64,000 nucleotides of DNA from an uncultured Chloroflexia bacterium (GTDB lineage: Bacteria > Chloroflexota > Limnocylindria > Limnocylindrales > CSP1-4), in the NCBI GenBank assembly GCA_963736545.1, contig CAVTPA010000001.1, forward strand, positions 1,793,660-1,857,659, written 5' to 3'. Both the position numbers and the translations under genes were made by a program. Positions 12,761-49,402 of the stretch are shown piece by piece. The notes under the pieces are model-generated. The model worked only from the letters and a program-made list of their open reading frames with translations. It searched no databases and was not told the origin of the DNA. How positions within the stretch are numbered: the stretch's first letter is position 1; each line of letters starts with the position of its first letter.

Positions 12761-12830
12761 GCCGTTCCTCCTGCGGTCGTCCCAACGCGCCTCCGGATGA
12801 ACCGGCGACCGCGTCGCCTTCGTGGAGTCC

Positions 12831-13493: not shown

Positions 13494-13545
13494 CGTCTTC
13501 TGCTCCGTATGGGCGCATCCAGGGCGCGACATGTCCACTGCGCCG

Positions 13546-14981: not shown

Positions 14982-14999
14982 GTGACTGACTCCTCTGCG

Positions 15000-18629: not shown

Positions 18630-18650
18630 GAGCGTCGGAGTCATCGACTG

Positions 18651-25057: not shown

Positions 25058-26182
25058 GTGGAGATGACTTCCCTCGAGCGCGTCATGGCTGCCTTCCGGC
25101 GCGAGGTGCCCGACCGCGTGCCGATGTTCGAGGCGATGATCGACCCGCACGTCGTCGACGGCATCCTGCCCGGCGGCTCGTACGCAGACTTGGTCGACCT
25201 GCTCGACATCGACTGCGCAGTCACCCCGACCCCGTCGCGGATGTACAACCTCGAGCTCGTCCGGGAGGACGACGGGGCCCGCATCTACCGCAGCGAGTGG
25301 GGCGAGCTGCGGGCGGCGACGGGCGAGATGGTCACGATCCCCATCGAGTATCCGATCAAGACCCGCGCCGACTGGGAAGCATACGAGATCCCTGACTACG
25401 CCCGGGCAGGTCGCCTCGACAACCTCGGCGGGCTCGTCGCCCGCTTCAAGGGACGGCGCGCCATCGGCTGCCACCTCCACGACTCGTTCACCTACCCGTC
25501 CTACCTCTTTGGGATGAGCGAGCTGTTCATGAACATCGTCGCCGAGCCCGAGTGGACGAAGGAGGTCATCGCAGCCTGCACCGCGCACTGCGTCGGCCTG
25601 ACCGAGCTCGCGGTGAAGGCCGGGGCCGACTTCATCATGTTCGGAGACGACGTCGGGGGCAGCACGGGGCCGATGATGTCACCAAGGCATTACGAGGAGT
25701 TCTTTCTGCCCGGGCTGGCGGCGGTCACCGCTAGGGCGCACGAGCTCGGGGCAAAGGTCCTTAAGCACACCGACGGCAACGTCACCAAGCTCCTCCCGAT
25801 GTTCGTCGAGATCGGGATTGACGCCTTCCACCCGTCCGATCCGAGCTCGGGGATGGACATCGTCGAGGTGAAGCGGGCGTTTGGGGACCGGCTGACAGTG
25901 TGCGGTGGAGTCGACACAGGGGCGCCGTTGTCCGACTGGAGCGTTCCTGAGCTCGTCGCGGAGGTCAGGAAACGGATCCGCGAGCTCGCTCCGGGCGGCG
26001 GCTGGATGATCGCCTCGAGCAACTCGATCCACTCCGGCGTTCGGCCGGAGAACTTCCAGGCGCAGGAGCTCACGACCCGCGTATTCGGGACATACGCGAA
26101 GCTTGACAAGGTTGCCGACCCGGAGCTCGAGGCGCTGATCGGGCGAATCCCGATGCGCGGTTCCGTTGGCGCCGAGGCGTGA
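25058..26182 (+). CDS. uroporphyrinogen decarboxylase (URO-D/MtaA) family protein
   Basis: 374 aa. N-terminal RVMAAFRREVPDRVPMFE, and a core FIMFGDDVGGSTGPMMSP. The zinc H-x-C-G position reads HTDG, with no Cys. Confidence 0.8.
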   Translation: MEMTSLERVMAAFRREVPDRVPMFEAMIDPHVVDGILPGGSYADLVDLLDIDCAVTPTPSRMYNLELVREDDGARIYRSEWGELRAATGEMVTIPIEYPIKTRADWEAYEIPDYARAGRLDNLGGLVARFKGRRAIGCHLHDSFTYPSYLFGMSELFMNIVAEPEWTKEVIAACTAHCVGLTELAVKAGADFIMFGDDVGGSTGPMMSPRHYEEFFLPGLAAVTARAHELGAKVLKHTDGNVTKLLPMFVEIGIDAFHPSDPSSGMDIVEVKRAFGDRLTVCGGVDTGAPLSDWSVPELVAEVRKRIRELAPGGGWMIASSNSIHSGVRPENFQAQELTTRVFGTYAKLDKVADPELEALIGRIPMRGSVGAEA

Positions 26183-26463
26183 TCATGGGCGGTGACCCGC
26201 TCGCCCACGCCGGCGGCTGCCTGGGAAGGACCGGTGCGCTGGGGGATGTCAACGGTCAACCAGGTCCAGCCGACCGTCGCACGAGTTGCCGATCGTGCGA
26301 ACCCCGGGAACGCGGATGGCATGGAGCGGATGGTCGCCCGGCGCCGTTCACGCCGTAGGGCGTCGGCGCTGAGCGGGCCATGCCCGCTCCGGGAGTTCCT
26401 GACGCGCTGCCGACGACGCGAGCGGCCCGTTCCCGCCCGACCCTAGCCTGACTGGAGATCGAG

Positions 26464-27474
26464 ATGGAGACCAAGCGCCAGGTGGTTCGCGCCGTGTTCG
26501 CGGGTGAACGGCCGCCGTACGTGCCCTGGCACGTCGCCTTCACCGCGGAGGCGAAGGCGCGGCTGCTGGAGCACCTGGGGCCGTGCGACTTGGAGCAGGC
26601 GCTGGACAACCACATGCTCATGCTCCGGCGCTCGACCGGCTCGATCACTGACCTCGGCGGCGGCCGCGTCCAGGACCTATTTGGCGTCGTGTGGAACCGG
26701 ACGATCGACAAGGACATCGGCTTTCCCGAGGGCCTCGTCCTGGCCGAGCCGACGCTCCATGATTGGCATCCTCCCGACCCTCTCAACCCTCGGTTCTACC
26801 TCAACTGGGACCGGCAGATCGCCGGAGGCAGCGATCGCTATCGCGTCTTCTCGGCCAGCTTCTCACTGTACGAGCGGGCGTGGTCCATGCGCGGCCTCGA
26901 GAACCTGATGCTCGACTTCTATGACCATCCGGCGTTCGTTCACGAGCTGTTGGATGCCCTGGCGGATTTCAACCTCGCCCAGGTGCGCGAGGCGCTCAAG
27001 TACGACATCGACGCCGTCTACTTCGGCGACGACTGGGGCCAGCAGCACGGCCTCCAGATGGGCCGGCGGCACTGGGATGCGTTCATCAGACCGCGGCTCG
27101 CGCGAATGTACCGGGAGGTACGCGAGGCCGGGAAGGCCGTGATGATCCACTCTTGTGGCGCCGTGGACGAGCTGTTCGATGAGCTGATCGCGCTCGGCCT
27201 CAACTGCTTCAACCCGTTCCAGCCTGAGGTCATGGACGTGGATGACGTCTTCCGCCGGTATCACGGCCGGCTGTCGTTCTTCGGCGGCCTGTCGACACAG
27301 CGGACGCTCCCGTTCGGGTCGGTCGAGGACGTCCAGCGGGAGACGGCCCACCTGCTTGATCTGGGGCGTGATGGCAGCTATGTGTTCGCCACAGGGCACG
27401 CGGTCGAGGGTGACGTCCCGCTCGAGAACATGCTGGCCTTCATCGACACCGTGCGGGCGCAGCGTGCGCAATGA
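26464..27474 (+). CDS. uroporphyrinogen decarboxylase (URO-D/MtaA) family protein
   Basis: 336 aa. RAVFAGERPPYVPWH, YFGDDWGQQHGLQMG, and an MtaA-like H-x-C-G motif IHSCG. SD GGAGA lies before the ATG. Confidence 0.8.
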   Translation: METKRQVVRAVFAGERPPYVPWHVAFTAEAKARLLEHLGPCDLEQALDNHMLMLRRSTGSITDLGGGRVQDLFGVVWNRTIDKDIGFPEGLVLAEPTLHDWHPPDPLNPRFYLNWDRQIAGGSDRYRVFSASFSLYERAWSMRGLENLMLDFYDHPAFVHELLDALADFNLAQVREALKYDIDAVYFGDDWGQQHGLQMGRRHWDAFIRPRLARMYREVREAGKAVMIHSCGAVDELFDELIALGLNCFNPFQPEVMDVDDVFRRYHGRLSFFGGLSTQRTLPFGSVEDVQRETAHLLDLGRDGSYVFATGHAVEGDVPLENMLAFIDTVRAQRAQ

Positions 27475-27513
27475 TCGAGCGCCCGGATGCCGCGCCGGCG
27501 AGGGAGGCTGACA
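27370..27513 (+). repeat. 144-bp direct repeat, left copy (3' end of the URO-D gene plus the first 14 codons of the next gene)
   Basis: 141/144 identical to 29433-29576. The three mismatches all lie in the first 35 bp. Confidence 0.95.
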
Positions 27514-27773
27514 GGGACCACGAGACGCTCAGGGGGGCGGCCTGCCAGCTCAACCGGGACGTGCATGGCGCCGGGCCTGTGATCCTTGCCTTCGGAGACG
27601 CGAGTGTCGTCGACCGGTCGGCCGGGATCCTGGTCATCAAGCCCAGCGCGCTCGCGTGCGATGCGGTGGAGCCGGCGGATGTCGATGAAACTGCGGGCGT
27701 GCCGGGTGGGGTTCCTCCCGCACACACGACCGATCGCCGCGGAGGAGCGCCGCACAGACGCCGAGATCTGTAG
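27471..27773 (+). pseudogene. class II aldolase/adducin (AraD-like) N-terminal fragment, truncated
   Basis: 100-aa ORF with VILAFGDASVVDRSAGILVIKPSA, resembling the GNxS...IKPSG region of the family. It ends where lower-GC DNA begins. The identification is weak. Confidence 0.35.
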
Positions 27774-27814
27774 CTGACAGTCAACGGACACTCGCATCCA
27801 GGAGGGCTCAGAAG

Positions 27815-28564
27815 ATGCTGACTGGAATGGTGGCATTGGTTACCGGCGGGTCACGTGGGCTGGGAGCGGAGACTTGTGTTGCCCTTGGAGACATGGGAGC
27901 GGCGGTGGTTGTCAACTACTCGGCACGTGCTGACGCCGCTGAACAGACCGTCGATAGCATCAGGGCGCGAGGGGGCACCTCGATCGCTCTTCGAGCAGAC
28001 GTTTCCGACGAAGCGGCCGTACGCAGAATGTTCGACTCCGTGGTCAATGAATTCGGGCGCCTCAACGTCCTCGTGAACAACGCCGCAGTCAACTCGGACT
28101 TTCTGGTCGAAGAAATGGACGTGGAGGAGTGGGACCGGGTGATCGCAGTGAATCTGCGAGGAGCGTTCCTATGCTCCAAGCACTCCATCGCCTTGTTGAG
28201 ATCAAGTGGATACGGTCGCATCGTCAACCTATCCAGCCAGGGCGTTCGGAAAGGCTCCATCACACACGCTCACTACTCGGCTTCCAAGATGGGAATCATC
28301 GGCTTTACTCGTTCCCTTGCCAGAGAACTCGGCAAGGATGGGATCACAGTAAATGCCGTGGCTCCGGGCCGAATAGTGACCGACATGCTGGCCTCCAACC
28401 TGGCATACAACGACAAGACAGAGGAATGGCTCAAGCAGACGCCGCTTGGGAGGTTCGGGAAGCCCCGTGATGTCGCGGACATGATCGCCTTCCTGGCATC
28501 ACCGAAGGCTTCGTACATCACGGGACAGGTTTTCGCCGTGGACGGCGGTCTGCTCATGCAATGA
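27815..28564 (+). CDS. SDR-family oxidoreductase (FabG-like)
   Basis: [13 protein letters not shown], and YSASK catalytic motifs. A strong AGGAGG SD. Visibly lower GC than the surroundings. Confidence 0.9.
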
Positions 28565-28577
28565 TGGGAGAAAGCGA

Positions 28578-29303
28578 ATGCAATCGGGCGGACTGGCTGC
28601 TGTTGTTACCGGGGGAGGATCCGGAATCGGCAAAGCATGCGCCCAGGCTCTCGCGGGATATCAGGTTTGCGTTTGCGACCTCAACTTGGATGCGGCCCGG
28701 AGTGTCGCAGCGAATCTGTGTGGCGCAAGCGCATGGGGTCTCGACGTAGCGGACCCCGACCAAGTCCGAGATGTCTTTGCAGAGATAGAACACTCCGTGG
28801 GCAGAATCGGCGTGCTCGTCACCTGCGCGGGGATCCCGGGGCACGGCCAGCTGTCGGAACTGCCTGACGATGTTTGGCGGCGGGTGATGGATGTCGATCT
28901 CGACGGTGTCTTCTACTGCATGCGCGAGGCACTAAAGCAGATGCTGCCGGTGAAGGACGGGATCATTGTCAATGTCTCCTCGATGTGCGGAATAATGGGC
29001 TGCGCGAGTTCTCCGGCATATTCTGCCGCGAAGGCCGGGGTCATAGGTCTTTCGAGGTCCGTCGCCCGCAGGCACACCGAGGATGGCATTCGTCTGAATG
29101 TGGTGGCGCCGGGGTTGATCGACACGCCAATGGCGGACGTGGACAGACAGCTGGGCAAGCTCCAAAAGGGAATCGCAAAGATTCCGATGGGCAGAATGGG
29201 TACGGCCTGGGAGATCGGCCAACTCATTGCCTTCTTGTGCGGCGATTTAGGAGCATTCCTTGCCGGGCAGGTGATAAGTCCCAACGGCGGACAACTTATC
29301 TGA
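28578..29303 (+). CDS. SDR-family oxidoreductase
   Basis: TGGGSGIG and YSAAK motifs. Lower GC. Sits 13 bp after the previous SDR gene. Confidence 0.9.
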   Translation: MQSGGLAAVVTGGGSGIGKACAQALAGYQVCVCDLNLDAARSVAANLCGASAWGLDVADPDQVRDVFAEIEHSVGRIGVLVTCAGIPGHGQLSELPDDVWRRVMDVDLDGVFYCMREALKQMLPVKDGIIVNVSSMCGIMGCASSPAYSAAKAGVIGLSRSVARRHTEDGIRLNVVAPGLIDTPMADVDRQLGKLQKGIAKIPMGRMGTAWEIGQLIAFLCGDLGAFLAGQVISPNGGQLI

Positions 29304-29432
29304 GGCTGATTGGATGCCATCGGGCTTGGCGTCCCTAGCCCGGATCCACTGAAACCCCCCGCGTGATTCTTCATCCGGGACACACGAACAGATGCCCACC
29401 TGAAGGGGAGTGATGGCGTTGCGAAACACCCA

Positions 29433-29576
29433 GATGGCAGTTACGTGTTCGCCACAGGGCACGCCGTCGAGGGTGACGTCCCGCTCGAGAACATGCTGGC
29501 CTTCATCGACACCGTGCGGGCGCAGCGTGCGCAATGATCGAGCGCCCGGATGCCGCGCCGGCGAGGGAGGCTGACA
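29433..29576 (+). repeat. 144-bp direct repeat, right copy
   Basis: Encodes an orphan ...DGSYVFATGHAVEGDVPLENMLAFIDTVRAQRAQ* gene tail followed by MIERPDAAPAREAD. Similarity then stops. Confidence 0.95.
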
Positions 29577-29647: not shown

Positions 29648-30562
29648 TCAGGGGATTCGCGTCCTAGGCGATCTCACCGGGCGCAGCGTCGGCGCACCAT
29701 GACGCACAACGACGTCTCCTGACGTCCCCGCGAGCAGAGCCGAGACAGCGCTTCGCCCACATGCCAACCCCAGACGCCGATCTCTGGCGGTGGGATGGGC
29801 GGCCCTCTGGCTGTGGCCGAGGACTTCGGGCCGCACGCGTGCGCCCATCAGCTCGCCAAGCTCTCGGGCAACCGTCCCTGCCTCACCGCAGCCTTCCGTC
29901 ATCACGGCGATCGCGTACCTAGCGGTGAGTGCCTCCCGCATTTGCCGAGCGACGTCCTCCAGTGCCAACGGACGTTCGGGGACGATCAGCACATCGACCG
30001 GCGTCGCCGCCGCGATCGCATCTGCGATCCGTCCACAGTTGGCGCCCAGGACCTCGACCAGGAATGCACGGTGGAGCAGTGACTCGGCTGTCACCCTCAG
30101 GGAGTCGACGGCAGCCACCCCGTAGTTCACGGCGCTGTCGAAGCCGATGGTCTCCTCGGAGCCTTCGATGTCGTTGTCGATCGTCGCGGGCACGAACGCA
30201 ATCGGGATGTCGGACGTAACCCGGAGCCGCTCGACGCCCCGGAGGCTGCCCGCTCCACCGATGACGACCAGCCCGTCGATTCCGAGCCGCGACAGCGACG
30301 CGACGCATTCCGCGACGACAGGCTGGAGTCGGAGGTCCGCCCGCCGGCTCGTGAGGAGGATCGTCCCAGCTCGAGCGAGCATGGCGGGCGACACCGCCGG
30401 CTCCGCCAACTCGATCCGGGCTCCCGCTGCCAGGCCGTCGAAACCCTCGAGGATCCCCACGACCTCCGCGTGGTTCGCGGTCGCCTCCTCCCGGACGCCG
30501 TAGATCACCGCGTTCATGCCCGGCGCGTCGCCGCCGCTCGTGAGAACCGCGAACCGCGCCAT
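29648..30562 (-). CDS. PfkA-family ATP-dependent phosphofructokinase-like kinase, non-canonical motifs
   Basis: 304 aa from MARFAVLTSGGDAPGMNA, with PATIDNDI and LGHSQR. GGDGS reads GGAGS, and the MGR motif reads LGA, compared with E. coli PfkA as I recall it. The start overlaps the stop of the upstream gene. Confidence 0.75.
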   Translation of the reverse strand: MARFAVLTSGGDAPGMNAVIYGVREEATANHAEVVGILEGFDGLAAGARIELAEPAVSPAMLARAGTILLTSRRADLRLQPVVAECVASLSRLGIDGLVVIGGAGSLRGVERLRVTSDIPIAFVPATIDNDIEGSEETIGFDSAVNYGVAAVDSLRVTAESLLHRAFLVEVLGANCGRIADAIAAATPVDVLIVPERPLALEDVARQMREALTARYAIAVMTEGCGEAGTVARELGELMGARVRPEVLGHSQRAAHPTARDRRLGLACGRSAVSALLAGTSGDVVVRHGAPTLRPVRSPRTRIP

Positions 30563-31554
30563 CAGACCCTCCCCGGACGACCCTCGAAGAACGTCCGGTA
30601 CGCGGCGAGGTAGTTGCCGGAGATCAGGTCGGCCGCTCGCTCTGCGCTGATCTGGCGGTCGATCATCTCCCGCAGGGGATCCCACCATAGGCTGCGGCCG
30701 ATCGCGAACCCGGAGTAGGCCTCGACCGCGCGGGCGGTCCGAAGCCAATGCAGGACCTGCGAGGTACTCGCACCACGCCCCAGGACGACGCAGCGCACAT
30801 GGACGCGCCCGTCTCGCTGCGCGATCCCGGCCACGGCCTCGCAATCGGCGGTGCGATCGAGCCCCTCGACCTTCCACACGTCGGGCTCGACCCCGATGTC
30901 TTGTAGGTGGGCCATCACCTCGACCATCAGGCTCGGGCGGACGTCGCGGTCGAACCGTTCGTGCCAGCCCGGCTCCTCCACGTCGGGAGGCTCCGGCGGC
31001 ACCACGAGCTCGAGGAGGACCGGGTAGGCGTGGGAGCGGGCCCAGCCGGTCAGGCGGGCGAGGCGCTCGTCCTCGGTCGCCTGGGCCGGGGACGGAACGC
31101 GCGGATTGCGCCGGAGCAGCACCTTGACAAGGTCGGGGCCGAAGCGGTCGATGTGCTCGGCGAACGCGTCGCCGTACGCAAACTCCAGCACGTCCGTGCC
31201 CGTCGCCTCGACCGGCATGACCAGGAGGAGGTTCCTCTCTCGCACGTCGACGGCGAGCTCCCCGGCCAGCTCCTCGTCAATGAGCGCCGCCGCTCCCTCC
31301 ACTGCGGGCTCGGCCTGCACGGCTCTGACGAGGCCATCCAGGATGACCCCCTTTAACCGCCGCGCCGTCTCGCGGTCCGCGCTCGAGAGGGGCCACGTGG
31401 TCCGGAGCAGCCGTGCGAAGCTCGAGCGATGATCGAATGCCATGACCGCCAGCGGGTTCGCGTACCCCGCGGGGGCGACCCCGCCATCCGGGGCCTGCCG
31501 CGGCTCCGCAGAGCGCCCGCGTTCCTGGCCGATAACCGGGGGCAGCTCGGCCAT
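30562..31554 (-). CDS. DUF2090 / LacD-like class I aldolase-fold protein
   Basis: LAVMAFDHRSSF and DVWKVEG motifs typical of the DUF2090 and tagatose-bisphosphate aldolase-like TIM barrel. Start taken at MAELPP (31554), 2 bp after the RLP stop. Confidence 0.6.
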   Translation of the reverse strand: MAELPPVIGQERGRSAEPRQAPDGGVAPAGYANPLAVMAFDHRSSFARLLRTTWPLSSADRETARRLKGVILDGLVRAVQAEPAVEGAAALIDEELAGELAVDVRERNLLLVMPVEATGTDVLEFAYGDAFAEHIDRFGPDLVKVLLRRNPRVPSPAQATEDERLARLTGWARSHAYPVLLELVVPPEPPDVEEPGWHERFDRDVRPSLMVEVMAHLQDIGVEPDVWKVEGLDRTADCEAVAGIAQRDGRVHVRCVVLGRGASTSQVLHWLRTARAVEAYSGFAIGRSLWWDPLREMIDRQISAERAADLISGNYLAAYRTFFEGRPGRV

Positions 31555-31555
31555 G

Positions 31556-32983
31556 TCAGTGCAGGGAGGGATAGCGCTGCTCGAGGGCCTGCACGAGGGC
31601 ATCGAGGCGCCGGTCCCGTGCCACGGCCATCAGCGCCCGCGCGTGGTCGGTCGCCGGAACCTCGGCGAGCGCCCCGGTCCGGTGAACGTCGAGCGCCTCC
31701 ACCATGGCCTCCGCCCCGAGGCGCGGATCGGGCCGTCCCGAGGAGCCCTTGATGGAGTTGATCGCGGACCCGGCCAGGAACAGCACCTGGTCGAGGATGC
31801 CGCGGTCCTCCGCGTCGCGCAGGTTCAGCCCGATGTTCCCCTGGTCGAGGCCGCCTGCCCGGACGATCGTCGTCGGGCGGATTCCTGCCAGCGGCGCGGT
31901 CAGGATGGCCTCCGAGGCCCGCCACTCCGCGCCGGACGGTCGCAGGAAGGGTTGGCCGGGCAGGACCGGTGCGGTCTGGCGGAAGTCGATCCCGTCGAGC
32001 CGCGCGAGGAGATCGACGACCTCCCGCCAGATGGCGCGCGTGCGGACGCCGACGCCGGCGTTGTGCCCGTAGATGGCAACGGGCTCCCCGGACGCGGCCA
32101 GGTGGTCGCGCACCATCCGCACGCCGCCGAGCACCCAGCTCTCGCTGAACATCACCCCGCGCGCTCCCGCCCCCCGTGCCGTGTCGACATTGGCGATCAG
32201 CTCGCCGGGCGCGGCCGTGACGTGAGGGGCGAACAGGAGCGTCTCGGACCGGCCGGGACGTTGACGTTCAATGGCCTCGATGGCCAAGCGAGTCCGTTCG
32301 GCCAGGGGGCAGTACGGAAGATTGGGATAGAGGTTCTCGTCCTCCTTCACGAAGGAGAAGAGGTCGACGGCGGCAATGTCGGCGACCAGGTCCCGCTCCT
32401 GGGTCGGCACCAGGCCGGCGGTCGGCTTGAGGATCGTCCCAAAGGCGGGCCGGCCCGCCTCCAGGCGCACGTGCGAGCGGAAGCCGGCAGCTCCGAGGGC
32501 CGGGCCCGGGAACGTCCGCAGGACACGTGGTGGGATGTCCAGCGCCACGAGACGCACATCCTGGGCCTCGGACACGTCGAAGATGATCGCCCCGGCCACC
32601 GTGTGGAGGATATCGGTGCTCGTGACATGCCCGTCGGTTTGGCACAGCATCTTCAATGGATAGGCCATGTGAAGGAGGCCGATCCGCCCGGTCGAATCGA
32701 AGGGCACGACGCCGGATGCCGAGCCCGTGCACTCCGCCAAGAGCGACCCGGCCGGTGGGTGGCGGGTGCCGCTCGTCGCGTGATACGCGATCTCCTCGGC
32801 GAACCCCGCCAGTGACTGCGAACGGAGTGCCAGGAAGTACGTGGCGGTAACGGCGTCATCTGCCGCGGGCGGAGGGTTCTCGGCCAGCACGTCGCTGATC
32901 ACGCGGCGCAGCAACGCCTCTCGCTCGTCCAGGTCGGCCCAGAGGAGCTCCACGGTGTCGGCACCGATGCGGGGAAGTGTCAT
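31556..32983 (-). CDS. RuBisCO-like protein (form IV RLP)
   Basis: 475 aa. IAYHATSGT, GTILKPTAGL (KPK to KPT), and FVKEDEN (carbamyl-Lys plus the acidic Mg ligands are retained). HxHRxxH is replaced by YGHNAGV, and the GGG loop is replaced by AGSAINS. Confidence 0.8.
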   Translation of the reverse strand: MTLPRIGADTVELLWADLDEREALLRRVISDVLAENPPPAADDAVTATYFLALRSQSLAGFAEEIAYHATSGTRHPPAGSLLAECTGSASGVVPFDSTGRIGLLHMAYPLKMLCQTDGHVTSTDILHTVAGAIIFDVSEAQDVRLVALDIPPRVLRTFPGPALGAAGFRSHVRLEAGRPAFGTILKPTAGLVPTQERDLVADIAAVDLFSFVKEDENLYPNLPYCPLAERTRLAIEAIERQRPGRSETLLFAPHVTAAPGELIANVDTARGAGARGVMFSESWVLGGVRMVRDHLAASGEPVAIYGHNAGVGVRTRAIWREVVDLLARLDGIDFRQTAPVLPGQPFLRPSGAEWRASEAILTAPLAGIRPTTIVRAGGLDQGNIGLNLRDAEDRGILDQVLFLAGSAINSIKGSSGRPDPRLGAEAMVEALDVHRTGALAEVPATDHARALMAVARDRRLDALVQALEQRYPSLH

Positions 32984-33118
32984 CTCAGGCCCTCCAGTGG
33001 GCGGTTCATCCTGACCTCATCTCAGCGCCTCGGGGACCGCCAGCCGGTTCGTCCGGGCACTCGTCCCTCTCGTGAGGGCGAAGGCGTTCATCGATCAGCG
33101 AGCCTCGCGGGCTTCGCG

Positions 33119-33385
33119 TCATTCAGGCGGTGGCGGGATCTCCTCCCCTGCGTCACCGATGTACGCGATGGGCTCACCGACAGCCACCGCTTCACCGGGC
33201 TGGGCCACAAGCCGGAGCACCGTGCCGCCCACGGGACTCTCGAACTCGACCGTTGCCTTGTCGGTCTCGAGCTCGCACAGCACAGTTCCGGGACCAACGC
33301 TCTCGCCCTCCCGGACCAGCCAGGCGAGGATCGTGCCGTGCTCCATCGAGGCCCCCATCGAGGGCATCACGACCGTGGTGCGCAC
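33119..33385 (-). CDS. stand-alone lipoyl-domain protein (E2 lipoyl domain only)
   Basis: 88 aa. MPSMGASMEHGTILAWLV...LCELETDKATVEFESP...GEPIAYIG, then a Pro-rich tail and a stop. There is no peripheral-subunit-binding domain and no acyltransferase domain. Confidence 0.8.
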   Translation of the reverse strand: MRTTVVMPSMGASMEHGTILAWLVREGESVGPGTVLCELETDKATVEFESPVGGTVLRLVAQPGEAVAVGEPIAYIGDAGEEIPPPPE

Positions 33386-33400
33386 TGATCGACTCCCTCC

Positions 33401-34387
33401 TTAGGACGCTATCGCGAAGAGCCCCTTGACGGCGCGAGCGATCTTCTCGGCGTCGGGGATCGTCGCCTTCTCCAGCACTGGCGAGAACGGGATCGGGTTG
33501 TCCAAGGATGCGACACGCACGACGGGAGCACGCAGCACGTCGAAGGCCCGCTCGGTGATCTCAGCGCTGAGCTCCGCGCCGACGCCGAAGCTGCGATGCC
33601 CTTCCTCCACGACCACGACGCGGCCGGTCTTGCGGACGGACAGCAGGATCGTTTCGATATCGAGCGGGCTGACCGACTTGAGGTCGATGACCTCGCACTC
33701 GATTCCCGACCCAGCACAGGCATCGGCGGCCCGCAACGCTTCGAGCAGCTGCCGGGAGTAGCTCACGACGGTTGCACTATGTCCAGGGCGAACGACCTCG
33801 GCCTTGCCGATCGGGACCAGGAAGTCGGGGCCCGACGGGACATCGCCGATATCCCCGTAGAGCAGCTTGTTCTCGACCACCATCACGGGGTCGTCGCTGC
33901 GGATGGCGCTCTTGAGCAGGCCCTTCGCGTCGGCCGGTGTCGCCGGCATGACGACGTGCAGCCCAGGGATTGCGGCGAACCAAACCTCGAGGTTCTGCGA
34001 GTGTTGGGCTGCGTAGCTCTTGCCAGCGCCCCCCTGCGTCCTGATTACCAGCGGAGCCGCGACCTGTCCGCCGCTCATGTAGCGGGCCTTCGCGACCTGG
34101 TTGGCGATCTGATCCATGGCGATGGCCGTGAAGTCAATGAACATGATCTCGGCGACTGGGCGAAGGCCGGTGATCGACGCTCCGAGGGCGGTCCCGATGA
34201 TCGCCGCCTCGCTGATCGGCGTGTCGATCACCCGCGTTGGGCCGAAGCGATCGTAGAGACCCTTGGTCGCCGCCATGGCGCCACCAAATCGCCCGACGTC
34301 CTCCCCCAGCAAGATCACGTTCGTGTCCCGCTCCATCTCCTCGGAGAGGGCCTGGGCGATAGCGGCGCGGTACGTCATCTGGACCAC
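33401..34387 (-). CDS. 2-oxoacid/acetoin dehydrogenase E1 component beta subunit
   Basis: 328 aa, typical transketolase-like Pyr plus C-terminal domains (LLGEDVGRFGG...VIDTPISEAAIIG). Confidence 0.9.
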   Translation of the reverse strand: MVQMTYRAAIAQALSEEMERDTNVILLGEDVGRFGGAMAATKGLYDRFGPTRVIDTPISEAAIIGTALGASITGLRPVAEIMFIDFTAIAMDQIANQVAKARYMSGGQVAAPLVIRTQGGAGKSYAAQHSQNLEVWFAAIPGLHVVMPATPADAKGLLKSAIRSDDPVMVVENKLLYGDIGDVPSGPDFLVPIGKAEVVRPGHSATVVSYSRQLLEALRAADACAGSGIECEVIDLKSVSPLDIETILLSVRKTGRVVVVEEGHRSFGVGAELSAEITERAFDVLRAPVVRVASLDNPIPFSPVLEKATIPDAEKIARAVKGLFAIAS

Positions 34388-34390
34388 AGC

Positions 34391-35380
34391 TCAGGCCCTC
34401 GCGGGCGCGGCGGGCGCGTCGCTGAAGACATACGCGGACACGGCATCAGGTGATGGGTCCGGCGAGCCGGTGGCGAACTCGATGGCTCGGGCGACTTCTT
34501 CGGCGGTCTGCGATTCGATGGCCGCATAGTCGTCCGGGCTCACGACGCCCTCGTGGGCGAGACGATCGGCGTAGCGCACGATGGGGCAGCGTGCCTTCCA
34601 CTCGTTCTCTTCGTCGCGAGTGCGGTACGAGCGGTTGTCGGACGCGCCGTGCCCGTACCATCGGTAGGTGAGGGCCTCGATGAGGGTGGGGCCTCCGCCA
34701 GTCCGCGCGCGGGCCACCGCCTCGACGGCGGCGGCATGGACTTCCAGCACGTCGTTGCCATCGACGGGGACGCCGGGGATCCCGTAGGCGCTCGCTCGCC
34801 CCGCGACGGACCCCCCGGCGATCATCTCCTTGCTAGAGGAGCTCAGGCCGTACTGGTTATTCTCGCAGACCCATACCACGGGCAGCCGCCAGATGGCCGC
34901 CATGTTCAGCGCCTCGTGAAAGGCGCCCGTGTTCGCGGCAGCGTCGCCGAAGAAGCACACGGCGACGGCGCCGGCGTCGCGGTACTTGCTCGACAGCGCG
35001 GCCCCGACCGCGATCGGCAACCCAGCTCCGACGATGCCGTTCGCGCCGATGATGTTCAGCGACACATCGGCGATGTGCATCGACCCCCCGCGCCCGTGGC
35101 AATAGCCCGTCTCCTTGCCCAGGATCTCGGCGAGCATGCCGTCCATGCCTGCACCCTTCGCCAGCAGGTGGCCGTGCCCGCGATGGGTCGTCAGAACATA
35201 GTCCATGTCCTCGAGGGCGGTGCAGACGCCGACGGCAACTGCTTCCTGGCCGACGGACAGGTGAGGGCTGATCCCGGGGATCTGCCGGGCCAGGTACATC
35301 CGGTAGAGGTTGTCCTCGAACTGCCGGATGCGAACCATCTGCCGCAGCATGTGCCGGTGCTGCTCCTCGGTGAGCCTCAT
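34391..35380 (-). CDS. 2-oxoacid/acetoin dehydrogenase E1 component alpha subunit (ThDP-binding)
   Basis: 329 aa from MRLTEEQHRHML. ThDP motif GDAAANTGAFHEALNMAA...VCENNQYG. Confidence 0.9.
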   Translation of the reverse strand: MRLTEEQHRHMLRQMVRIRQFEDNLYRMYLARQIPGISPHLSVGQEAVAVGVCTALEDMDYVLTTHRGHGHLLAKGAGMDGMLAEILGKETGYCHGRGGSMHIADVSLNIIGANGIVGAGLPIAVGAALSSKYRDAGAVAVCFFGDAAANTGAFHEALNMAAIWRLPVVWVCENNQYGLSSSSKEMIAGGSVAGRASAYGIPGVPVDGNDVLEVHAAAVEAVARARTGGGPTLIEALTYRWYGHGASDNRSYRTRDEENEWKARCPIVRYADRLAHEGVVSPDDYAAIESQTAEEVARAIEFATGSPDPSPDAVSAYVFSDAPAAPARA

Positions 35381-35381
35381 G

Positions 35382-36012
35382 TCAACCCGAGATGTCCGAG
35401 CGGGACTGGATGGCCTTCTTGAGCTCATCGGCGATGGCATGGCAGATCGCCATGTGGACGTCCTCGACGTGCACCATCTTCCAGGATGGGACGACGACGC
35501 AGATGTCGGCGACGTCCTTGGCCTTGCCCCCGCCCTTCCCGGAGAGGCAGATCGTCGTGGCGCCCAGCGAACGCGCGACATCGAACGCGTTCAGGACGTT
35601 CTGGCTGTTCCCGGAACCGCTGATCCCGATGAGGACGTCACCGGCCTCGCACCAGTTCTTCACCTGCTCACTGAAGACGTACTCGTACCCCATGTCGTTG
35701 GCGGCGGCGGTGATGAATGACACGGAGTCATTGAGGCACAGCGTCTTGAAGCGCTGGTCGCTCACTACCGCGGTCTTGGCGTCATTGGAGATCGTGTGCT
35801 TGGCCAGATCGTTGATGATGTGCGCATGCGGTGCTCCCGTGGCCTCCGTTCCCCATCGTCAGGACCTTCTTCCCCTGGCGTTGAGCCTCGAGGAGCACCT
35901 CCACGATCCGGGCGAGTTGCTCGTTGTCGAGCTCCTGGAGCGTCGCGGCGAGGAGCTTCATGTAGTCGGCGAAGCCTTGGGCGATGGCTGGCGTGGTTCC
36001 GATCGTCGGCAT
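35382..36012 (-). pseudogene. SIS-domain sugar-phosphate isomerase (GmhA-like), frameshift near 35826
   Basis: MPTIGTT...KKVLTMGNGGHGSTA is in one frame. AHIINDLAKHTISNDAKTAVVSDQRFKTLCL...GISGSGNSQNV follows in the next frame. The span is 631 nt (3n+1), consistent with a single-base insertion, which could be an assembly indel. Confidence 0.7.
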
Positions 36013-36073
36013 GGTCAGGTCCTCTGAGGTGCGCTTCAATTCGATCGACAGGGCTGGTCGAAGGTGCGGTGGG

Positions 36074-37000
36074 TCACGTGTGCGCCCAGCGGTACAGGTG
36101 CTCCCGGAGCGGGTCGCCGGCGAGGCCATGCGCCGCCAGGAGCTGTGCCGGGCGCCCGGATTCCCCGAACACATCGTTAATGGCGATCCGTTCGATCCGG
36201 TGGACGACATCGCGCTCGTCGAGGACCATCGAGAGCCCGTCGGCGAGACCGCCGTGGGTGTTGTGCTCCTCGACGACCGCCACCCGGCGGCCGACGAGGG
36301 CGTCGACGATGGCGCGATCGAGCGGCTTCAGCCGGCTCACGCCCAGCACGGTCAGGCGGATGCCCTCCTGCGCCAGGGCATCGACTGCCGCAACGACGTC
36401 GGATGAAGAGGTGCCGGTCGTGACGACGACGCCTGCGTCCCCATCGCGCAGGCGGTGGTACGCGGGGAGCGGCCCGGGCAATTCATCGACGACGGGAAGC
36501 GTCGCCGGTCGGGAGAGCCGGACATACGTCGGGCCATGGACAGCGAACACCTCGGCGAGGACGGCCCGCAGGTCCCACGCGTCGAGCGGGGCGTAGACGC
36601 GGATGTTCGGGATGGCCTGCATGATCCCGAGGTCCTCGACGGCCTGCTGTGTCGCACCGTCCTCGCCGAGCCCGATGCCGGCGTGGAAGCCGAACAGCTT
36701 GACGTTCAGGTTCGGATACGCCACGGAGACGGCGATCTGGTCCGCCGCCCGCCGGGTCAGAAACGAAGCGAAGCTGTTGACGGCCGGCATCCCGCCCCCG
36801 AGCGCAATTCCCGCGGCCATGGCGACCATGTTCTGTTCGGCGATCCCCACGTTCAGATAGCGTTCTGGGAAGCGCTCGCGGAACCCAGCCGAACGGGTCG
36901 ACGTTGCCAGGTCCGCGTCGAGGACGACCAGATTGGGGTACTGCGCGCCGAGCTCGGGCATCGCGGCACCGTAGGCGTCGCGGAGGGCGACGGCCTTCAT
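36074..37000 (-). CDS. transketolase, C-terminal (Pyr + C-terminal domain) subunit
   Basis: 308 aa from MKAVALRDAYG, with NVGIAEQNMVAMAAG. ATGA overlap with the N-terminal subunit gene. Confidence 0.9.
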   Translation of the reverse strand: MKAVALRDAYGAAMPELGAQYPNLVVLDADLATSTRSAGFRERFPERYLNVGIAEQNMVAMAAGIALGGGMPAVNSFASFLTRRAADQIAVSVAYPNLNVKLFGFHAGIGLGEDGATQQAVEDLGIMQAIPNIRVYAPLDAWDLRAVLAEVFAVHGPTYVRLSRPATLPVVDELPGPLPAYHRLRDGDAGVVVTTGTSSSDVVAAVDALAQEGIRLTVLGVSRLKPLDRAIVDALVGRRVAVVEEHNTHGGLADGLSMVLDERDVVHRIERIAINDVFGESGRPAQLLAAHGLAGDPLREHLYRWAHT

Positions 37001-37858
37001 CGCGCCGCCTCCCCGTGTCCGAGGGCCTTCAGCTCGGTGACGGCCGCCTCGTACTGCGTGTCGTCCAGGGCATGGCTGTGCCACTCGCGACGACCCTCCA
37101 TGAAGGAGACCCCTTTCCCTTTGGTGGTGTGCGCGATGACGACATGCGGCCCTCGGTCCGGCTCGCTGCGGACCCAGTCGATGGCCCCGACGAGGTCCTC
37201 GATGTCGTTGCCGTCGATCTCGCGCGTCTGCCAGCCGAACGCCGCGAATTTGGCGGCATACGGCCGAAGATCGAGGATGTCCTCGACCCGCCCATCGTTC
37301 TGCATCTCGTTGGCATCGACGATCGCGACCAGCCCGTGGAGCGGGTGCGCGCCGGCGAACGCGATGGCTTCCCACGTGTTGCCCGAGATCAAGCTCGCCG
37401 TCGCCCAAGACGACGTACACGATCGTCGGCTTCGCGCGCGTGGCCAGCCACCAGGCGAGCCCGCAGCCGACGGACAGGCCCTGGCCGAGCGACCCGGTGG
37501 ACATCTCGACCTCGGGCAGACGGGTTCGGTCCGGATGCCCCTGGAGGCGGGAACCGAACTGGCGCAAGGTCGTGAGCTCGGCGGCCGGGATGACACCGAC
37601 GCCGGCCAGCGCGGCATAGAGCGCGGGAGCCGCGTGACCCTTCGACAGGATCACATGGTCGCGGACCTCCGTAGGTGTGCCGAGCTTGGCGGGATCGGTG
37701 GCGTATCCGAAGAGCACCGCAAGGATGTCGGCGCACGAGAGGCTGCCCCCAGGGTGACCCGAGCCGGCCGCCTTGATCTGGAGCAGCACATCGAGCCGGA
37801 TCTGCCTGGCGAGCTCCGTCAGGCGCTCGACCGGCGCTGCCTGCGTGTGAACAGTCAT
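36997..37858 (-). pseudogene. transketolase, N-terminal (ThDP-binding) subunit, frameshift near 37380
   Basis: MTVHTQAAP...GSGHPGGSLS...SKGHAAPALYA...VVLGDGEL is in one frame. TWEAIAFAGAHPLHGLVAIVDANEMQNDG...HTTKGKGVSFME is in the next. The span is 862 nt (3n+1). Confidence 0.8.
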
Positions 37859-38836
37859 GGCTTCCTCTGCCCTGTGCGGGGTCTGCCCGCGCGCCCCTGG
37901 CTCCCCGGGAGCACCTTGACGGTGTTGAGGATCTCGTCGATCGACTGCGCCCGACCGAGGCGCTTGGGATCGGCAAGCGCCAGACAGTGGAACAGGACGT
38001 CCGAGAGCATCATCTGCAGGAGGCGGGTGAGGGCCGCGTCGTTGCCGAACAGCCCCACGCCCGGTGGCGTCGAAAGGGAGACCTCGACGGCGCGTGCCAG
38101 CGGCGACAGCGGGTCCCCGGTGAGGGCGATGGTGTGGGCTCCCCGCTCGGACGCGATGCGGGCCGCCCTCAGGTCCAGGTCGGTGCGCCCCGAGTACGAC
38201 ACCAGGACAACTGCGTCTTCGGGTCCCACCAGCGACGCGTAGGCGAGCTGGGTGTGCGCGTCCTCGGAGTACTGAACGCTCAGCCCGAGTCGAAGGAGCC
38301 GATGGTGCATGTCCATCGCGACCATCGACGACAGGCCGGCGCCAACCGGGACGATGCGGCGCGCGCGGTCGAGGATGGCGACCACTCGCCGCAGGCGGTC
38401 GTCCACCAGAAGCATCTGGCCGAAGGCGACGGTCCGGGACGAGACCGACCCGAAGAATCTTCGTCGCGACGACCTCGGGCTCGTCGGTGAGAAGGATGGC
38501 AGGGTCGAGGGCGTTGCCCTCGCTACCAGCGGCCAGGTTGAGTCCGCGCTCGCGCGCGAGCGACCGCTTCAGTTGTCCGAAGCCAGCAAAACCCAAGCGG
38601 CGAGCAAGACGGTCAATCGTCGATCGACTTGTATCGGATTGGATGGCCACCTGCGGAGCGGTGACCAAGCCCCGTTCCGCCTCGGGAATGGACAGCAGGT
38701 ACGCAATGATGCGCTGGTCCGCTCGCGACATCGGCATCGAGGCGAGGCGGCCGAGAAGCGTTCCGCCCTTATCTTGGTTGGGCCGGTCGTCACTTGAGAC
38801 GTCTTGCGTCACACGGGATGACACAACTAGCTCCAT
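37855..38836 (-). pseudogene. RpiR/MurR-family regulator (HTH_6 + SIS), frameshift near 38460
   Basis: The HTH part (RIIAYLLS...RSTIDRLARRLGFAGFGQLKRSL) is in the frame of the 1015-aa ORF. The SIS part (RIVPVGAGLSSMVAMDMHHRL...VSYSGRT) is in ORF 37855..38415. The span is 982 nt (3n+1). The TGA overlaps the transketolase ATG. Confidence 0.75.
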
Positions 38837-39618: not shown

Positions 39619-41019
39619 TCACCGGGGCGCCACAAGCCCCGTGCCCGGCGTCATTCCATTGAGCGTCTGTGGCGTGACGAACAAGATCTCACGCGCGATT
39701 CCCAAGGCCTCGCCGACGGTGTACTGGCCCTGCCCGATCTTCTCGGCAAGCACGTCGGCGAGCTGCCGGCGAACGATGAACGCCTTTGCATACGACCACT
39801 CGACACAATACGCGTCGCTGAAGAAACCCACGTGCCTGTTGAGCGGCAACATGTCCAGGCGATCCCGGAGCACCTTGCGGATCACGCCGGGAAACAGATT
39901 GTGCCACCAGTAGCCAGCCAAGGAGATGTTCGGCAGTTCGCGGGCGAGCGTGCAGAACCCCTGGTTTGCGTGCTCGCTGGCGAGGAACACCTGGAACCCA
40001 ATCGAGGGGTGCCGCGCGGCCAGACTTGCGATCTCGAAGATCGTGTCCTGGCGCAACTTGCTGCCGGTCTCGAACGGGAGCAGCTCGGCACCGACCGAGA
40101 ACTGGAACAGCAGCCGGCGGCCGCTTCGCTCGAGGGCGCGGAGGAACGCCTCGAGGATGTAGCTGGCATAGACATCGCGGTCGTCGGGGGTCGCCCGGTC
40201 ACAATTCGCGATGGCCGCCGCCATCTCCAGGTCGTCGACCTCGCGTAGCGTGAGGTCGGTGGAGATGTGCTGGGCCGTCGCGAGGACCCGGCCGAAAGGG
40301 ATCGCGCCTAGGTAGTGATCGATGGCGGCTCCGACGTCGTCCACGGACCGGATTCTGCGCTCGACCGCCGGTCGCTGCTCGCCGACCGTCACGGGCAGGG
40401 GCGCGGAGGGGGCGTCCTGTGCCCACGCCCGCTCGAGCTCGTAGAGGGCCACGTCGTTCATGCCCCACTGGGCGCGCGCGAAGAAGGCCCACTCGAGCGC
40501 GTACTCGAGCACGTCGTCGGCCGAACCGTCACGCCGCCGCCAGAGCTCGGTGCTCGCGCGGCGGATTCCAGCGCGCTTCAGGACCTCCCGGGCCCACGCC
40601 GCGTCGGCCGACCGCTCACGGATCGCCGCGTCGACACGCCACCATCCGGCCTCGTCCTGTGGTGGCTCGAGCCCGAATAGATCGCGAAGGATTACGCGAA
40701 TTCCCCAGTAGCCGCTAGTGCCGCGAATTGCCGCGACGTAGGGGAGTGCCTCCGCAACGCGCCCGGTGGCAACATCGTCGCCACGATCCTCGGGGAGCCG
40801 CGCCTGCGAAGGACAGCCCGCGGCTCCGAGCTCCGAAATAATCATGTGGTACAGCAGCACGTCGTCCAGCCCGCGGGCGCCGAGGTGGGCGGAATCGAGA
40901 TGGGTGTGGCAGTCGATCAGCGGGATCTCCGCGAGACCGTCGAGCACTGTCTGAACGACATGAGAGGGCTCCACGCTTCGAACCTCCGTTGTCGACCGCC
41001 GGACCCTGGCGGGCACCAC
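39619..41019 (-). CDS. glucuronate isomerase (UxaC)-like amidohydrolase-superfamily protein
   Basis: 466 aa. IPLIDCHTHL near the N-terminus, GYWWHNLFP, and a C-terminal FFSDAYCVEWSYAKAFIVRRQL pattern, as in uronate isomerases. Confidence 0.65.
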   Translation of the reverse strand: MVPARVRRSTTEVRSVEPSHVVQTVLDGLAEIPLIDCHTHLDSAHLGARGLDDVLLYHMIISELGAAGCPSQARLPEDRGDDVATGRVAEALPYVAAIRGTSGYWGIRVILRDLFGLEPPQDEAGWWRVDAAIRERSADAAWAREVLKRAGIRRASTELWRRRDGSADDVLEYALEWAFFARAQWGMNDVALYELERAWAQDAPSAPLPVTVGEQRPAVERRIRSVDDVGAAIDHYLGAIPFGRVLATAQHISTDLTLREVDDLEMAAAIANCDRATPDDRDVYASYILEAFLRALERSGRRLLFQFSVGAELLPFETGSKLRQDTIFEIASLAARHPSIGFQVFLASEHANQGFCTLARELPNISLAGYWWHNLFPGVIRKVLRDRLDMLPLNRHVGFFSDAYCVEWSYAKAFIVRRQLADVLAEKIGQGQYTVGEALGIAREILFVTPQTLNGMTPGTGLVAPR

Positions 41020-42062: not shown

Positions 42063-43013
42063 TCACAGCCTGTCGGCCGGGTTGAGCCGCCGGCTCGCTG
42101 CGATCGCGCGATCCGATGCCGTGGCGCGTGCGTATCTCGACAGCATCTCGCGGGACTTCCAGCCAGCCAGCGCCATCGTGTCGCCCTCGCTCACGCCGGC
42201 CGAGAGCACCCCGTGCGCCCAGCTGTGCCGGAGAAGGTGGGGATGGAGCCCGGGCAGCCCGGCCTGGTCGCCACGTCGGCGGACCATCTGCGCGATGCCG
42301 GATACGGTCATCGGTCCCCGCTCCCCGAGCCACAGGGCCGGCGAGTCGGCGTGCGCGTGCCGGCCCCGCAGGCGGAGGTAGCGGTCAACGGCCTTCGCGG
42401 CCTTCGCGCCCATGTGGACGACCCGCGGGCGGCGACCCTTGCCGAGCACGTGGAACGTCTGCGCGTCGAGGTCAACGTCGTTCGTCTCGGGATCGCCCGG
42501 AGTCCAGCGGAGTCCGGTGACTTCCGCGAGCCGGGCGCCGGTGCCGATGAAGGTCCGCAGGATGGCCGCGTCGCGGCGGTCCTCGTAGCCGGTGCCGGCG
42601 CACGTCGCGAGGAGGCGGCGCAGCTCGTCCTCGCTGAGCACCTTGGGCGGCTCGTCGGGGACCTTCGGCGGGCGCATCTTCGCCATCGGGCTCGTGGTGA
42701 TCTCGCCCTCCTCCACGGCCCACTTGAAGAACTGCTGCAAGCTCCGGTAGCGGTTCGTCGCGGTCGCCGGCCGAGAGTCGGTGAGCAGCCGCTCGATCCA
42801 CGCCTCGACGTGCTCGCGCTTGATGTTCGCGACGTCGGTCGGCATCCCGCAGGCCGCGAGGAACCGGGAGAAGCCGGCGATGGCCTCGGCGTAGGTCTGG
42901 ATGGTCCGGGGCGCGAGGTTCGACGCGCGAAGGTGGCGCGCCCAGCTCGCGGCGTTGCCGCCCAGGTCGCCCGGGGTTGCTACGATGGGCGGTGTGGAAA
43001 CGGCTTGCGGCAT
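42063..43013 (-). CDS. tyrosine recombinase / integrase (XerC/D-like)
   Basis: 316 aa. N-terminal SAM-like core-binding domain (RTIQTYAEAIAGFSRFL). The catalytic region has GARLAEV (Arg I), HLLRHSWAH (H-x-x-R ... H), and SRYAR (Tyr). Confidence 0.9.
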   Translation of the reverse strand: MPQAVSTPPIVATPGDLGGNAASWARHLRASNLAPRTIQTYAEAIAGFSRFLAACGMPTDVANIKREHVEAWIERLLTDSRPATATNRYRSLQQFFKWAVEEGEITTSPMAKMRPPKVPDEPPKVLSEDELRRLLATCAGTGYEDRRDAAILRTFIGTGARLAEVTGLRWTPGDPETNDVDLDAQTFHVLGKGRRPRVVHMGAKAAKAVDRYLRLRGRHAHADSPALWLGERGPMTVSGIAQMVRRRGDQAGLPGLHPHLLRHSWAHGVLSAGVSEGDTMALAGWKSREMLSRYARATASDRAIAASRRLNPADRL

Positions 43014-49126: not shown

Positions 49127-49402
49127 TCAGCCGCGTAGGTCGGCGAGCAGGGTATCCATGTCCTCGTACGCAGTCGAGCCGCCGGCGGCGTACTCCGCCT
49201 CCGCCTCGCGGACCTCCCGCAGGAACAGCGCGCGACGCGCTGCCCGCAGCTCGTCCCGTTCAGCCTCGTACTGCCTGGCCTCCACGAGGTAGGCCGTCGT
49301 CTGCGAACGCTGCAGGATGGCGACCGGCTCCTCTGCGTCGTGCAGCGACTCGAGGATCTCGGCCGTCCGCTGGCGAAGCTCCGTCACACCGATACTCTTC
49401 AT
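49127..49402 (-). CDS. Phd/YefM-family antitoxin
   Basis: 91 aa. N-terminal SIGVTELRQRTAEILESL...EPVAILQRSQTTAYLV, typical of Phd/YefM. Confidence 0.8.
   Translation of the reverse strand: MKSIGVTELRQRTAEILESLHDAEEPVAILQRSQTTAYLVEARQYEAERDELRAARRALFLREVREAEAEYAAGGSTAYEDMDTLLADLRG

Follow-up and report, generated by a model that had tools for sequence, protein, structure and literature searches.

A putative free-standing lipoyl carrier beside a dedicated E1 in a sugar-catabolic gene cluster with apparently recurrent E2 reduction

2-Oxoacid dehydrogenase complexes are the textbook example of a multienzyme machine, with an E2 core as its scaffold. The locus described here raises the question of how an E1 might work in an operon that carries a lipoyl domain and no such core. 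It lies in a 64,000-nucleotide stretch of contig CAVTPA010000001.1 from an uncultured Chloroflexia bacterium, the whole of which is referred to below as the window and has a G+C content of ~70%. On the minus strand of the window, the genes for E1 alpha and E1 beta are followed by an 88-aa open reading frame (ORF) for a lipoyl domain and then by the gene for a RuBisCO-like protein (RLP). An earlier reading of the DNA letters, hereafter the original prediction, had drawn attention to this arrangement and offered two explanations: that a two-carbon (C2) unit is harvested from ketose phosphates onto a carrier, in the manner of the QncN/L/M proteins of quinocarcin-type pathways, or that the lipoyl ORF is the stump left by deletion of an E2.

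Our analysis points to an answer that takes something from the second explanation. The lipoyl ORF appears to be the product of a truncation that has happened repeatedly in a conserved family of clusters, and it has since been kept by selection. If this is true, repeated loss of the core with E1 (and, in some lineages, the lipoyl domain) under selection would mean that the scaffold is optional in nature. Its E1 and lipoyl carrier would then be a minimal pair for studying E1–lipoyl recognition and the use of domains in trans. The pathway would join an orphan RLP clade, a distinctive SIS isomerase, and uronate-isomerase-like and URO-D-like proteins, and its ~400 relatives in JGI metagenomes make it a concrete target for enzyme-function discovery.

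The lipoyl ORF and its operon

Genes were called by three-frame translation combined with Pfam and NCBIfam searches; every domain assignment stands far above chance, as with Transket_pyr at E = 3e-45. The central part of the cluster, in which the junctions are 4-bp overlaps or gaps of 1–15 bp, reads as follows, in the order of transcription:

37855–38824, minus strand: RpiR-family regulator (HTH_6 and SIS domains); two frames joined across a 1-base insertion at ~38454
36997–37858, minus strand: N-terminal half of transketolase (TK-N); Transketolase_N (PF00456) after frame joining, 1-base insertion at ~37388
36074–37000, minus strand: C-terminal half of transketolase (TK-C), 308 aa; Transket_pyr (PF02779) and Transketolase_C (PF02780)
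35382–36012, minus strand: GmhA-like SIS isomerase; SIS_2 and gmhA-like matches after frame joining, 1-base insertion at ~35825
34391–35380, minus strand: E1 alpha, 329 aa, starting MRLTEEQ; E1_dh (PF00676)
33401–34387, minus strand: E1 beta, 328 aa; Transket_pyr and Transketolase_C
33119–33385, minus strand: stand-alone lipoyl domain protein, 88 aa; GTG start at 33385; Biotin_lipoyl
32984–33118, minus strand: intergenic gap of 135 bp between the lipoyl ORF and the RLP gene, without an E2 remnant
31556–32983, minus strand: RLP, 475 aa; RuBisCO_large, 44.8 bits

The 88-aa protein covers the whole of the Biotin_lipoyl model (PF00364; 70.9 bits, E = 8e-20), and in alignments with E2 chains of solved structure its ETDKAT motif falls on the TDK of the lipoyl lysine. 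Its best NCBIfam match is the lipoyl domain of the acetoin dehydrogenase E2 (AcoC). A biotin carrier was considered and rejected, because the motif is ETDKA and not MKM. The C-terminus consists of the first residues of an E2 linker, EEIPPPPE, so that the protein is, as had been predicted, a lipoyl domain that ends in a linker and nothing more. A Shine-Dalgarno sequence, GGAGGGAG, lies 7 nt upstream of the GTG start and provides a strong ribosome-binding site. A word-indexed search with the ORF gave four matches, and in a HMMER search of the protein against 1.84 billion representatives the best 150 matches are E2s with two or three lipoyl domains, since the summed scores of multiple domains outrank single-domain proteins.

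The same 88–89-aa gene, followed by an RLP gene, is found in the related loci L001, L002, L003 and L085, all of them short-read assemblies in which every cluster gene is intact, and the lipoyl gene also occurs in the 90% cluster members P0145 and P0146. We therefore rejected a recent deletion confined to the window genome, since at least five other contigs have the lipoyl-only gene. The gene has a ratio of non-synonymous to synonymous substitution rates (dN/dS) of 0.19–0.29 at a dS of ~0.5–0.6, with non-synonymous change significantly depleted (Fisher p = 8e-8). In the comparison of the window with L002 the values are 0.19 for dN/dS and 0.62 for dS, and the neighbouring genes have ratios of 0.11–0.25. 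The lipoyl gene is under purifying selection.

The rest of an E2 was sought throughout the window. Twenty-five E2 and five E3 sequences from related loci, compared by tblastn with six frames of the 64 kb, gave a single match, at 33146–33373 inside the lipoyl ORF itself. Pfam scans of ~45 window ORFs found no E2 core, E3, acyl carrier protein (ACP) or lipoate ligase, nor did these ORFs include a phosphopantetheinyl transferase or a non-ribosomal peptide synthetase (NRPS), and an E2 acyltransferase core (2-oxoacid_dh, with DHRxxDG) is absent from the 64 kb. The prediction that neither E2 core nor E3 is encoded here is thus borne out. It had also suggested looking for E2 remnants in the gap before the RLP gene and for a lipoate ligase, and neither turned up in the window: the gap (32984–33118) has stop codons in all three frames and no match to E2 sequences, and it is less conserved than the flanking genes, with GGAGG preceding the RLP start. 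An E3 is often encoded elsewhere in the genome.

E1 alpha matches positions 1–299 of the 300 in PF00676 (296.6 bits, E = 2e-88) and scores 353 bits with TIGR03182 (PDH_E1_alph_y), under the equivalog cut-off of 394 bits; its closest solved structure is human pyruvate dehydrogenase (PDH) E1 alpha. E1 beta matches PF02779 with 154 bits and PF02780 with 125 bits, and passes the NCBIfam PDH E1-beta subfamily NF006667 (394 bits, against a cut-off of 321). It belongs to a distinct clade whose genes adjoin a SIS gene and has 50–57% identity to generic E1 beta; an exact look-up of the window sequence matched no recorded contig. Upstream, the transketolase is split between adjacent genes into a half that binds thiamine diphosphate (ThDP; PF00456) and a pyrimidine/C-terminal half (PF02779 and PF02780). 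TK-C is 95% identical to its counterpart in L001, and TK-N is intact in L001 and L002 and needs frameshift repair in the window.

The order of genes from RpiR to RLP is therefore as the original prediction gave it, but it missed that RpiR, TK-N and SIS are not intact ORFs in the window, each of the three having one extra base in alignments with L001 and L002. The insertions could be real mutations, in which case the operon here would be a decaying pseudogene cluster, and three single-base insertions within 2.6 kb, with the other 13 genes common to the window and L001 intact, would fit such a decay. However, all three are missing not only from L001 and L002 (95% and 86% nucleotide identity to the window) but also from L004, which is ~97–99% identical and comes from another sample. 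Frames are split outside the cluster as well, in genes unrelated to it: a corrinoid (B12-binding) protein with two shifts, a fucose-isomerase-like gene, a sugar ABC ATPase and an MTTB-family fragment (12900–15750, 18600–19443 and 50050–50955 in the window). This pattern fits indel errors of long-read assembly, and sister contigs of the same ENA series (L004, L088 and L089) are full of indel breaks. Because related contigs lack the insertions and unrelated window genes are broken too, we regard the three frameshifts as probably assembly errors, and a pseudogene cluster as quite unlikely.

E2 states across the SIS–E1 family

The wider family was reached through an E1 beta search and a SIS alignment; a scan of JGI metagenomes with the latter found 395 relatives and returned 80 loci. 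Window-like E1 beta sequences form a clade with 58–77% identity, mostly from metagenome-assembled genomes (MAGs) of Planctomycetota, Verrucomicrobiota, Kiritimatiellae, Hydrogenedentes and similar groups, and are always preceded by a highly conserved SIS gene with motifs of its own (TMGNGGH..TA.H..ND). The E2 state of each locus was taken as the gene that follows E1 beta, using only loci with enough flank and with redundancy removed at 97%:

Full E2 (379–398 aa): 18 non-redundant loci, for example L005, L006, L090 and L092
Lipoyl domain plus peripheral subunit-binding domain (PSBD; 155–160 aa): 3 non-redundant loci, namely the single lineage L086/L087/L095, L129 and L088
Lipoyl domain only: 4 non-redundant loci, made up of the window clade and the independent case of L093
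No E2 or lipoyl gene within 3–6 kb: 11 non-redundant loci, for example L007, L139 and L154

The full-length E2 that the original prediction had proposed to look for in orthologous clusters is thus present, though not uniformly. In L005, a Verrucomicrobiota locus with an E1 beta 71% identical to that of the window, it has 398 aa, and in L006 395–412 aa. The whole of the 88-aa ORF aligns with the N-terminal lipoyl domain of these two E2s and stops in the linker exactly where they run on into the PSBD and the catalytic domain; the PSBD, missing from the window ORF, is also present in L090 and in the 155-aa protein of L086. These alignments indicate that the lipoyl ORF is descended from a full E2. 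As history, then, the stump of a deleted E2 is a good description, with complete E2s in the same position in some loci and lipoyl–PSBD proteins in others. A simple deletion, however, is not, since the nearest relatives (L001, L002/L085 and L003) keep an 88–89-aa gene under purifying selection and truncation appears to be recurrent.

The argument for recurrence comes from the E1 beta tree (neighbour-joining), on which reduced E2 states are scattered among full ones. For example, L097, with a full E2, is the sister of L086, and L129 is nested among L114 and L125, which also have full E2s. Such scattering suggests repeated independent truncation, and we estimate, approximately, that E2 has been partly truncated at least four or five times and lost altogether two or three times. 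The reduced genes themselves differ in form. That of L086/L087/L095, from Sedimentisphaerales, encodes 155 aa and is seen in NCBI, Logan and JGI assemblies alike; that of L129 encodes 160 aa, and in L088 the frame runs for 188 aa on an error-prone contig. The lipoyl-only gene of L093 is 79 aa long and is followed by a DeoR gene. On the 3' side of the L129 gene, at 6894–7073 of that locus, there is a relic of an E2 C-terminus (58% identity over 31 aa), which resembles a scar left by internal deletion and points to E2 decay in progress.

A separate case is L089, in which a 472-aa fusion of E1 beta with a lipoyl domain is called (9001–10419). Most likely, indel errors have made E1 beta run on into the first part of a full E2, whose catalytic domain follows downstream in fragments.

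Ongoing decay raises the alternative that the lipoyl ORF is a vestige without a function of its own, which merely persists as a short ORF within the operon. Its derivation from a truncated E2, the L129 relic and the many relatives without any lipoyl gene would all be expected of a vestige. Yet the gene has been held at a dN/dS of ~0.2 over a dS of ~0.6, and no short-read assembly of the clade shows damage to its lysine motif, its length or its reading frame. It is also served by a strong ribosome-binding site of its own, and the independent lineage of L093 has arrived at the same lipoyl-only form. We consider a vestige very unlikely. Worth following among these observations is the apparently recurrent reduction of E2, under selection, in a conserved cluster linked to an RLP.

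In the loci without E2, the genes that follow E1 are a GatZ-like gene, a transketolase, an RLP gene or a uronate-isomerase-like gene, and no replacement acyltransferase was found 3' of E1 beta. Nor did the C-termini of E1 beta, inspected for features that track the E2 state as a sign of lost PSBD binding, show a clear pattern.

A lipoyl carrier used in trans

Taking these lines together, we think it somewhat probable that the 88-aa protein is a working lipoyl carrier for a dedicated E1, and that a housekeeping E2 core and E3 finish the cycle in trans. In such a scheme, the PDH/acetoin-type E1 alpha–beta would use ThDP to cleave or decarboxylate a sugar-derived substrate, either a 2-oxo acid or an alpha-hydroxyketone/ketose phosphate, which would be the product of the co-translated SIS isomerase and of the RLP. 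The free domain would itself be lipoylated, and its lipoyl lysine reductively acylated by E1. Transfer of the acyl group to CoA and re-oxidation of the dihydrolipoyl group would fall to enzymes encoded elsewhere, most likely the housekeeping E2 core and E3. E1 is far more selective about the lipoyl domain on which it acts than E2 cores and E3 are, and the free domain may have been retained because E1 needs a cognate partner.

A partial precedent exists in actinobacteria, where OdhA lacks a lipoyl domain; one commentary has speculated that it relies on those of E2p and on the shared E3 (PMC8740704). The actinobacterial PDH/2-oxoglutarate dehydrogenase system resembles the arrangement proposed here in that lipoyl domain, acyltransferase and E1 are on different polypeptides, with use in trans proposed (PMC8740704). 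It differs in that its lipoyl domains remain within a full E2p, whereas the window has a free 88-aa protein and no acyltransferase at the locus. More generally, the window cluster shares with the alpha2beta2-type PDH, acetoin and branched-chain 2-oxoacid complexes E1 alpha, E1 beta and, directly downstream, a lipoyl domain with a DKA lysine. Unlike them, it has no PSBD, acyltransferase core or E3, either within the cluster or in the rest of the window; its E1 alpha falls under the PDH equivalog cut-off; and in its sugar island a SIS isomerase and an RLP are coupled to E1. That a lipoyl domain can be a movable module is also seen in PRK11892, a PDH E1 beta with an N-terminal lipoyl domain (the window ORF matches model positions 1–84), and in protein X/E3BP, whose lipoyl domain the ORF matches too; in neither case, however, is the domain free, being part of another subunit that occurs alongside a full E2. 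The "lipoyl carrier protein" of Pelobacter was set aside as a parallel, being GcvH-like. Literature searches turned up no account of an E1 operon that encodes a separate E2-type lipoyl protein or of an E1 within an RLP cluster, and no paper on the present cluster.

Several points weigh against a dedicated carrier completed in trans. The 11 family members without a lipoyl gene near E1 imply that E1 there uses a foreign lipoyl domain or none, which weakens the case that a cognate domain is needed. Within the window, E2 core, E3 and lipoate ligase were not found, and three operon genes are frameshifted in the assembly; should these shifts be genuine, this strain has no working pathway. The number of independent losses is approximate, since it comes from a simple neighbour-joining tree of E1 beta, and the SIS–E1 family is known from sequence alone.

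The loci that lack both E2 and lipoyl gene can also be read as a sign that CoA is not involved at all. E1 alpha–beta and the free lipoyl protein would then be a self-sufficient module that needs no E2 core, with the acyl-dihydrolipoyl group discharged by hydrolysis, by phosphorolysis or by an enzyme other than E2, or with lipoate serving only as an oxidant. Loss of the E2 core on many occasions alongside high conservation of E1 alpha–beta and SIS is in keeping with this, as are the 11 non-redundant loci themselves, and a 4HBT thioesterase gene in the sugar island (10031–10708) could in principle discharge a thioester. That gene, however, is 23 kb away, and the related contigs end short of that point; no conserved candidate for the discharge was found next to E1 where E2 is missing, and the full E2 kept by half of the family argues for transfer to CoA as the ancestral output. 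A CoA-independent system is thus an unlikely explanation.

Whichever way the carrier is discharged, the nature of the E1 substrate bears on what it carries. Because E1 is so tightly coupled to a ketose-phosphate-type isomerase and to the RLP, a ketose or 1-deoxy-ketose phosphate would deserve serious consideration beside a 2-oxo acid. By way of illustration, 1,3-isomerisation of a deoxy-ketose-1-phosphate by the RLP could give an acetoin-like methyl ketone, which E1 might then cleave to acetyl-lipoate and an aldose phosphate. A fuller version of this idea, in which a widespread RLP-linked pathway has E1 cleave a ketose or 1-deoxy-ketose phosphate made by SIS and RLP and load the C2 unit on the free lipoyl protein, with the E2 scaffold dispensable and shed wholly or partly at least five times, would make the cluster a naturally "unassembled" 2-oxoacid dehydrogenase system; it strikes us as rather unlikely in its entirety.

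The Qnc-like logic favoured by the original prediction also starts from a ketose phosphate. There, ThDP enzymes would take glycolaldehyde (C2) from the ketose phosphate, oxidise it on lipoate and pass it to a biosynthetic carrier. The translational coupling of E1 to a ketose-phosphate-type SIS isomerase, often beside a split transketolase, is reminiscent of this, and QncN and QncL consist of E1-like ThDP, pyrimidine-binding and transketolase-C domains together with a lipoyl domain (PMC6335953). Both systems thus combine ThDP-dependent E1-like domains with a lipoyl domain, and Qnc acts on a ketose phosphate (PMC6335953). Judged by the published architecture of QncL, in which pyrimidine-binding, transketolase-C, lipoyl and acyltransferase domains form one protein that delivers to the ACP QncM within a biosynthetic cluster (PMC6335953), the window differs in having E1 beta and the lipoyl domain as separate genes and no acyltransferase domain. 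The ACP QncM and the NRPS that belong to the Qnc system are without counterpart among the ~45 window ORFs scanned, and the setting is a catabolic one of regulators, kinases, aldolases, an ABC sugar transporter and isomerases. Since the Qnc route needs the QncL acyltransferase, the ACP and the NRPS context, membership in this system is not supported, and a Qnc-like biosynthetic pathway is extremely improbable here. The chemical analogy by itself, in which a ThDP enzyme would move a C2 unit from a ketose phosphate to lipoate, may still apply.

The RLP-linked sugar island

Around the genes listed above, the cluster extends on both sides:

39619–41019, minus strand: uronate-isomerase-like protein of the amidohydrolase superfamily ("X466"); PDB 4i6v, 9e-20; uronate isomerase 2q08, 1e-6
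30562–31539, minus strand: DUF2090/LacD-like class I aldolase-type protein; start uncertain
29648–30562, minus strand: kinase of the ATP-dependent 6-phosphofructokinase (PFK) family, 304 aa
25058–26182 and 26464–27474, plus strand: two URO-D/MtaA-family genes, divergent from the cluster

The RLP passes only the general RuBisCO_large Pfam model. It falls outside every characterised RLP equivalog, scoring 79 against an NCBIfam cut-off of 497 for rubisco_III, 60 against 700 for OiaX and 45 against 409 for MtnW (NF007095). At 47% identity it resembles the RLP of the Sedimentisphaerales cluster L086. Known RLP roles are listed in PMC6389311. The nearest parallels are RLP-containing sugar-catabolic clusters (D-apiose pathways) and the RLPs of methionine salvage. 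The likeness to these is that a form IV RuBisCO homologue stands in a sugar-phosphate catabolic cluster with kinase, aldolase and split transketolase; the difference is that the window RLP lies far under the OiaX, MtnW and type III cut-offs.

Other members of the cluster recur with it. In the 41 SIS–E1 loci with a long flank, an RLP gene occurs 26 times, a URO-D-like gene 13 times, a split transketolase 11 times and a uronate-isomerase-like gene 9 times. The uronate-isomerase-like protein of the window has no Pfam match and is 45–48% identical to the products of 449–453-aa genes in L093 and L086, the figure for the Sedimentisphaerales cluster being 47%; like this protein, the URO-D/MtaA paralogues accompany equivalent clusters in other phyla. 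Loci differ in their kinase, which is PFK or PfkB, and in their aldolase, which is of the DUF2090, class II fructose-bisphosphate aldolase or GatZ-like type. From this gene content, the SIS–E1 alpha–beta genes, the RLP, the uronate-isomerase-like and URO-D-like proteins, a kinase, an aldolase and sometimes a split transketolase make up what is predicted to be a conserved sugar-catabolic cluster, found mostly in Planctomycetota, Verrucomicrobiota and related MAGs. We know of no described RLP pathway with an E1 alpha–beta/lipoyl module. In the window, a PfkB kinase, a DeoC/LacD-family aldolase and the 4HBT thioesterase are grouped at the far end of the island (10031–12916).

Two rearrangements set the window apart from L001 and L002. 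A 113-bp deletion at ~31514 removes the intergenic region between RLP and DUF2090, because of which the DUF2090 ORF overlaps the end of the RLP gene and its true start is unclear. A 2063-bp insertion (27370–29576) is likewise missing from L001 and L002 and is carried by L004. It holds two SDR genes (27815–28564 and 28578–29303) and has a G+C content of ~61% as against ~70% elsewhere. On its two sides lie the copies of a 144-nt direct repeat (27370–27513 and 29433–29576; 98% identical), which duplicates the 3' end of the URO-D gene.

The island is further accompanied by a corrinoid protein (13164–13538), an MTTB-family fragment (50050–50955) and the URO-D/MtaA paralogues (25058–27474), of which two to four occur with the island, including in L085 (5063–9114). 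This combination suggests that corrinoid-dependent methyl transfer is linked to the pathway, perhaps in the demethylation of O-methylated sugars. Just past the upstream end of the cluster there is a tyrosine recombinase gene, beside one for a 771-aa STAND-NTPase/LuxR regulator (42063–43013 and 44457–46772). The sugar island may have been acquired laterally, since the closest gene sets are in Planctomycetota and Verrucomicrobiota MAGs. Elsewhere in the window we noted the following:

880–6776: cydABDC-like cytochrome bd oxidase locus
49127–49402: Phd/YefM antitoxin
57159–59048: sulfatase-family ORF
63387–63977: alkyl-sulfatase fragment

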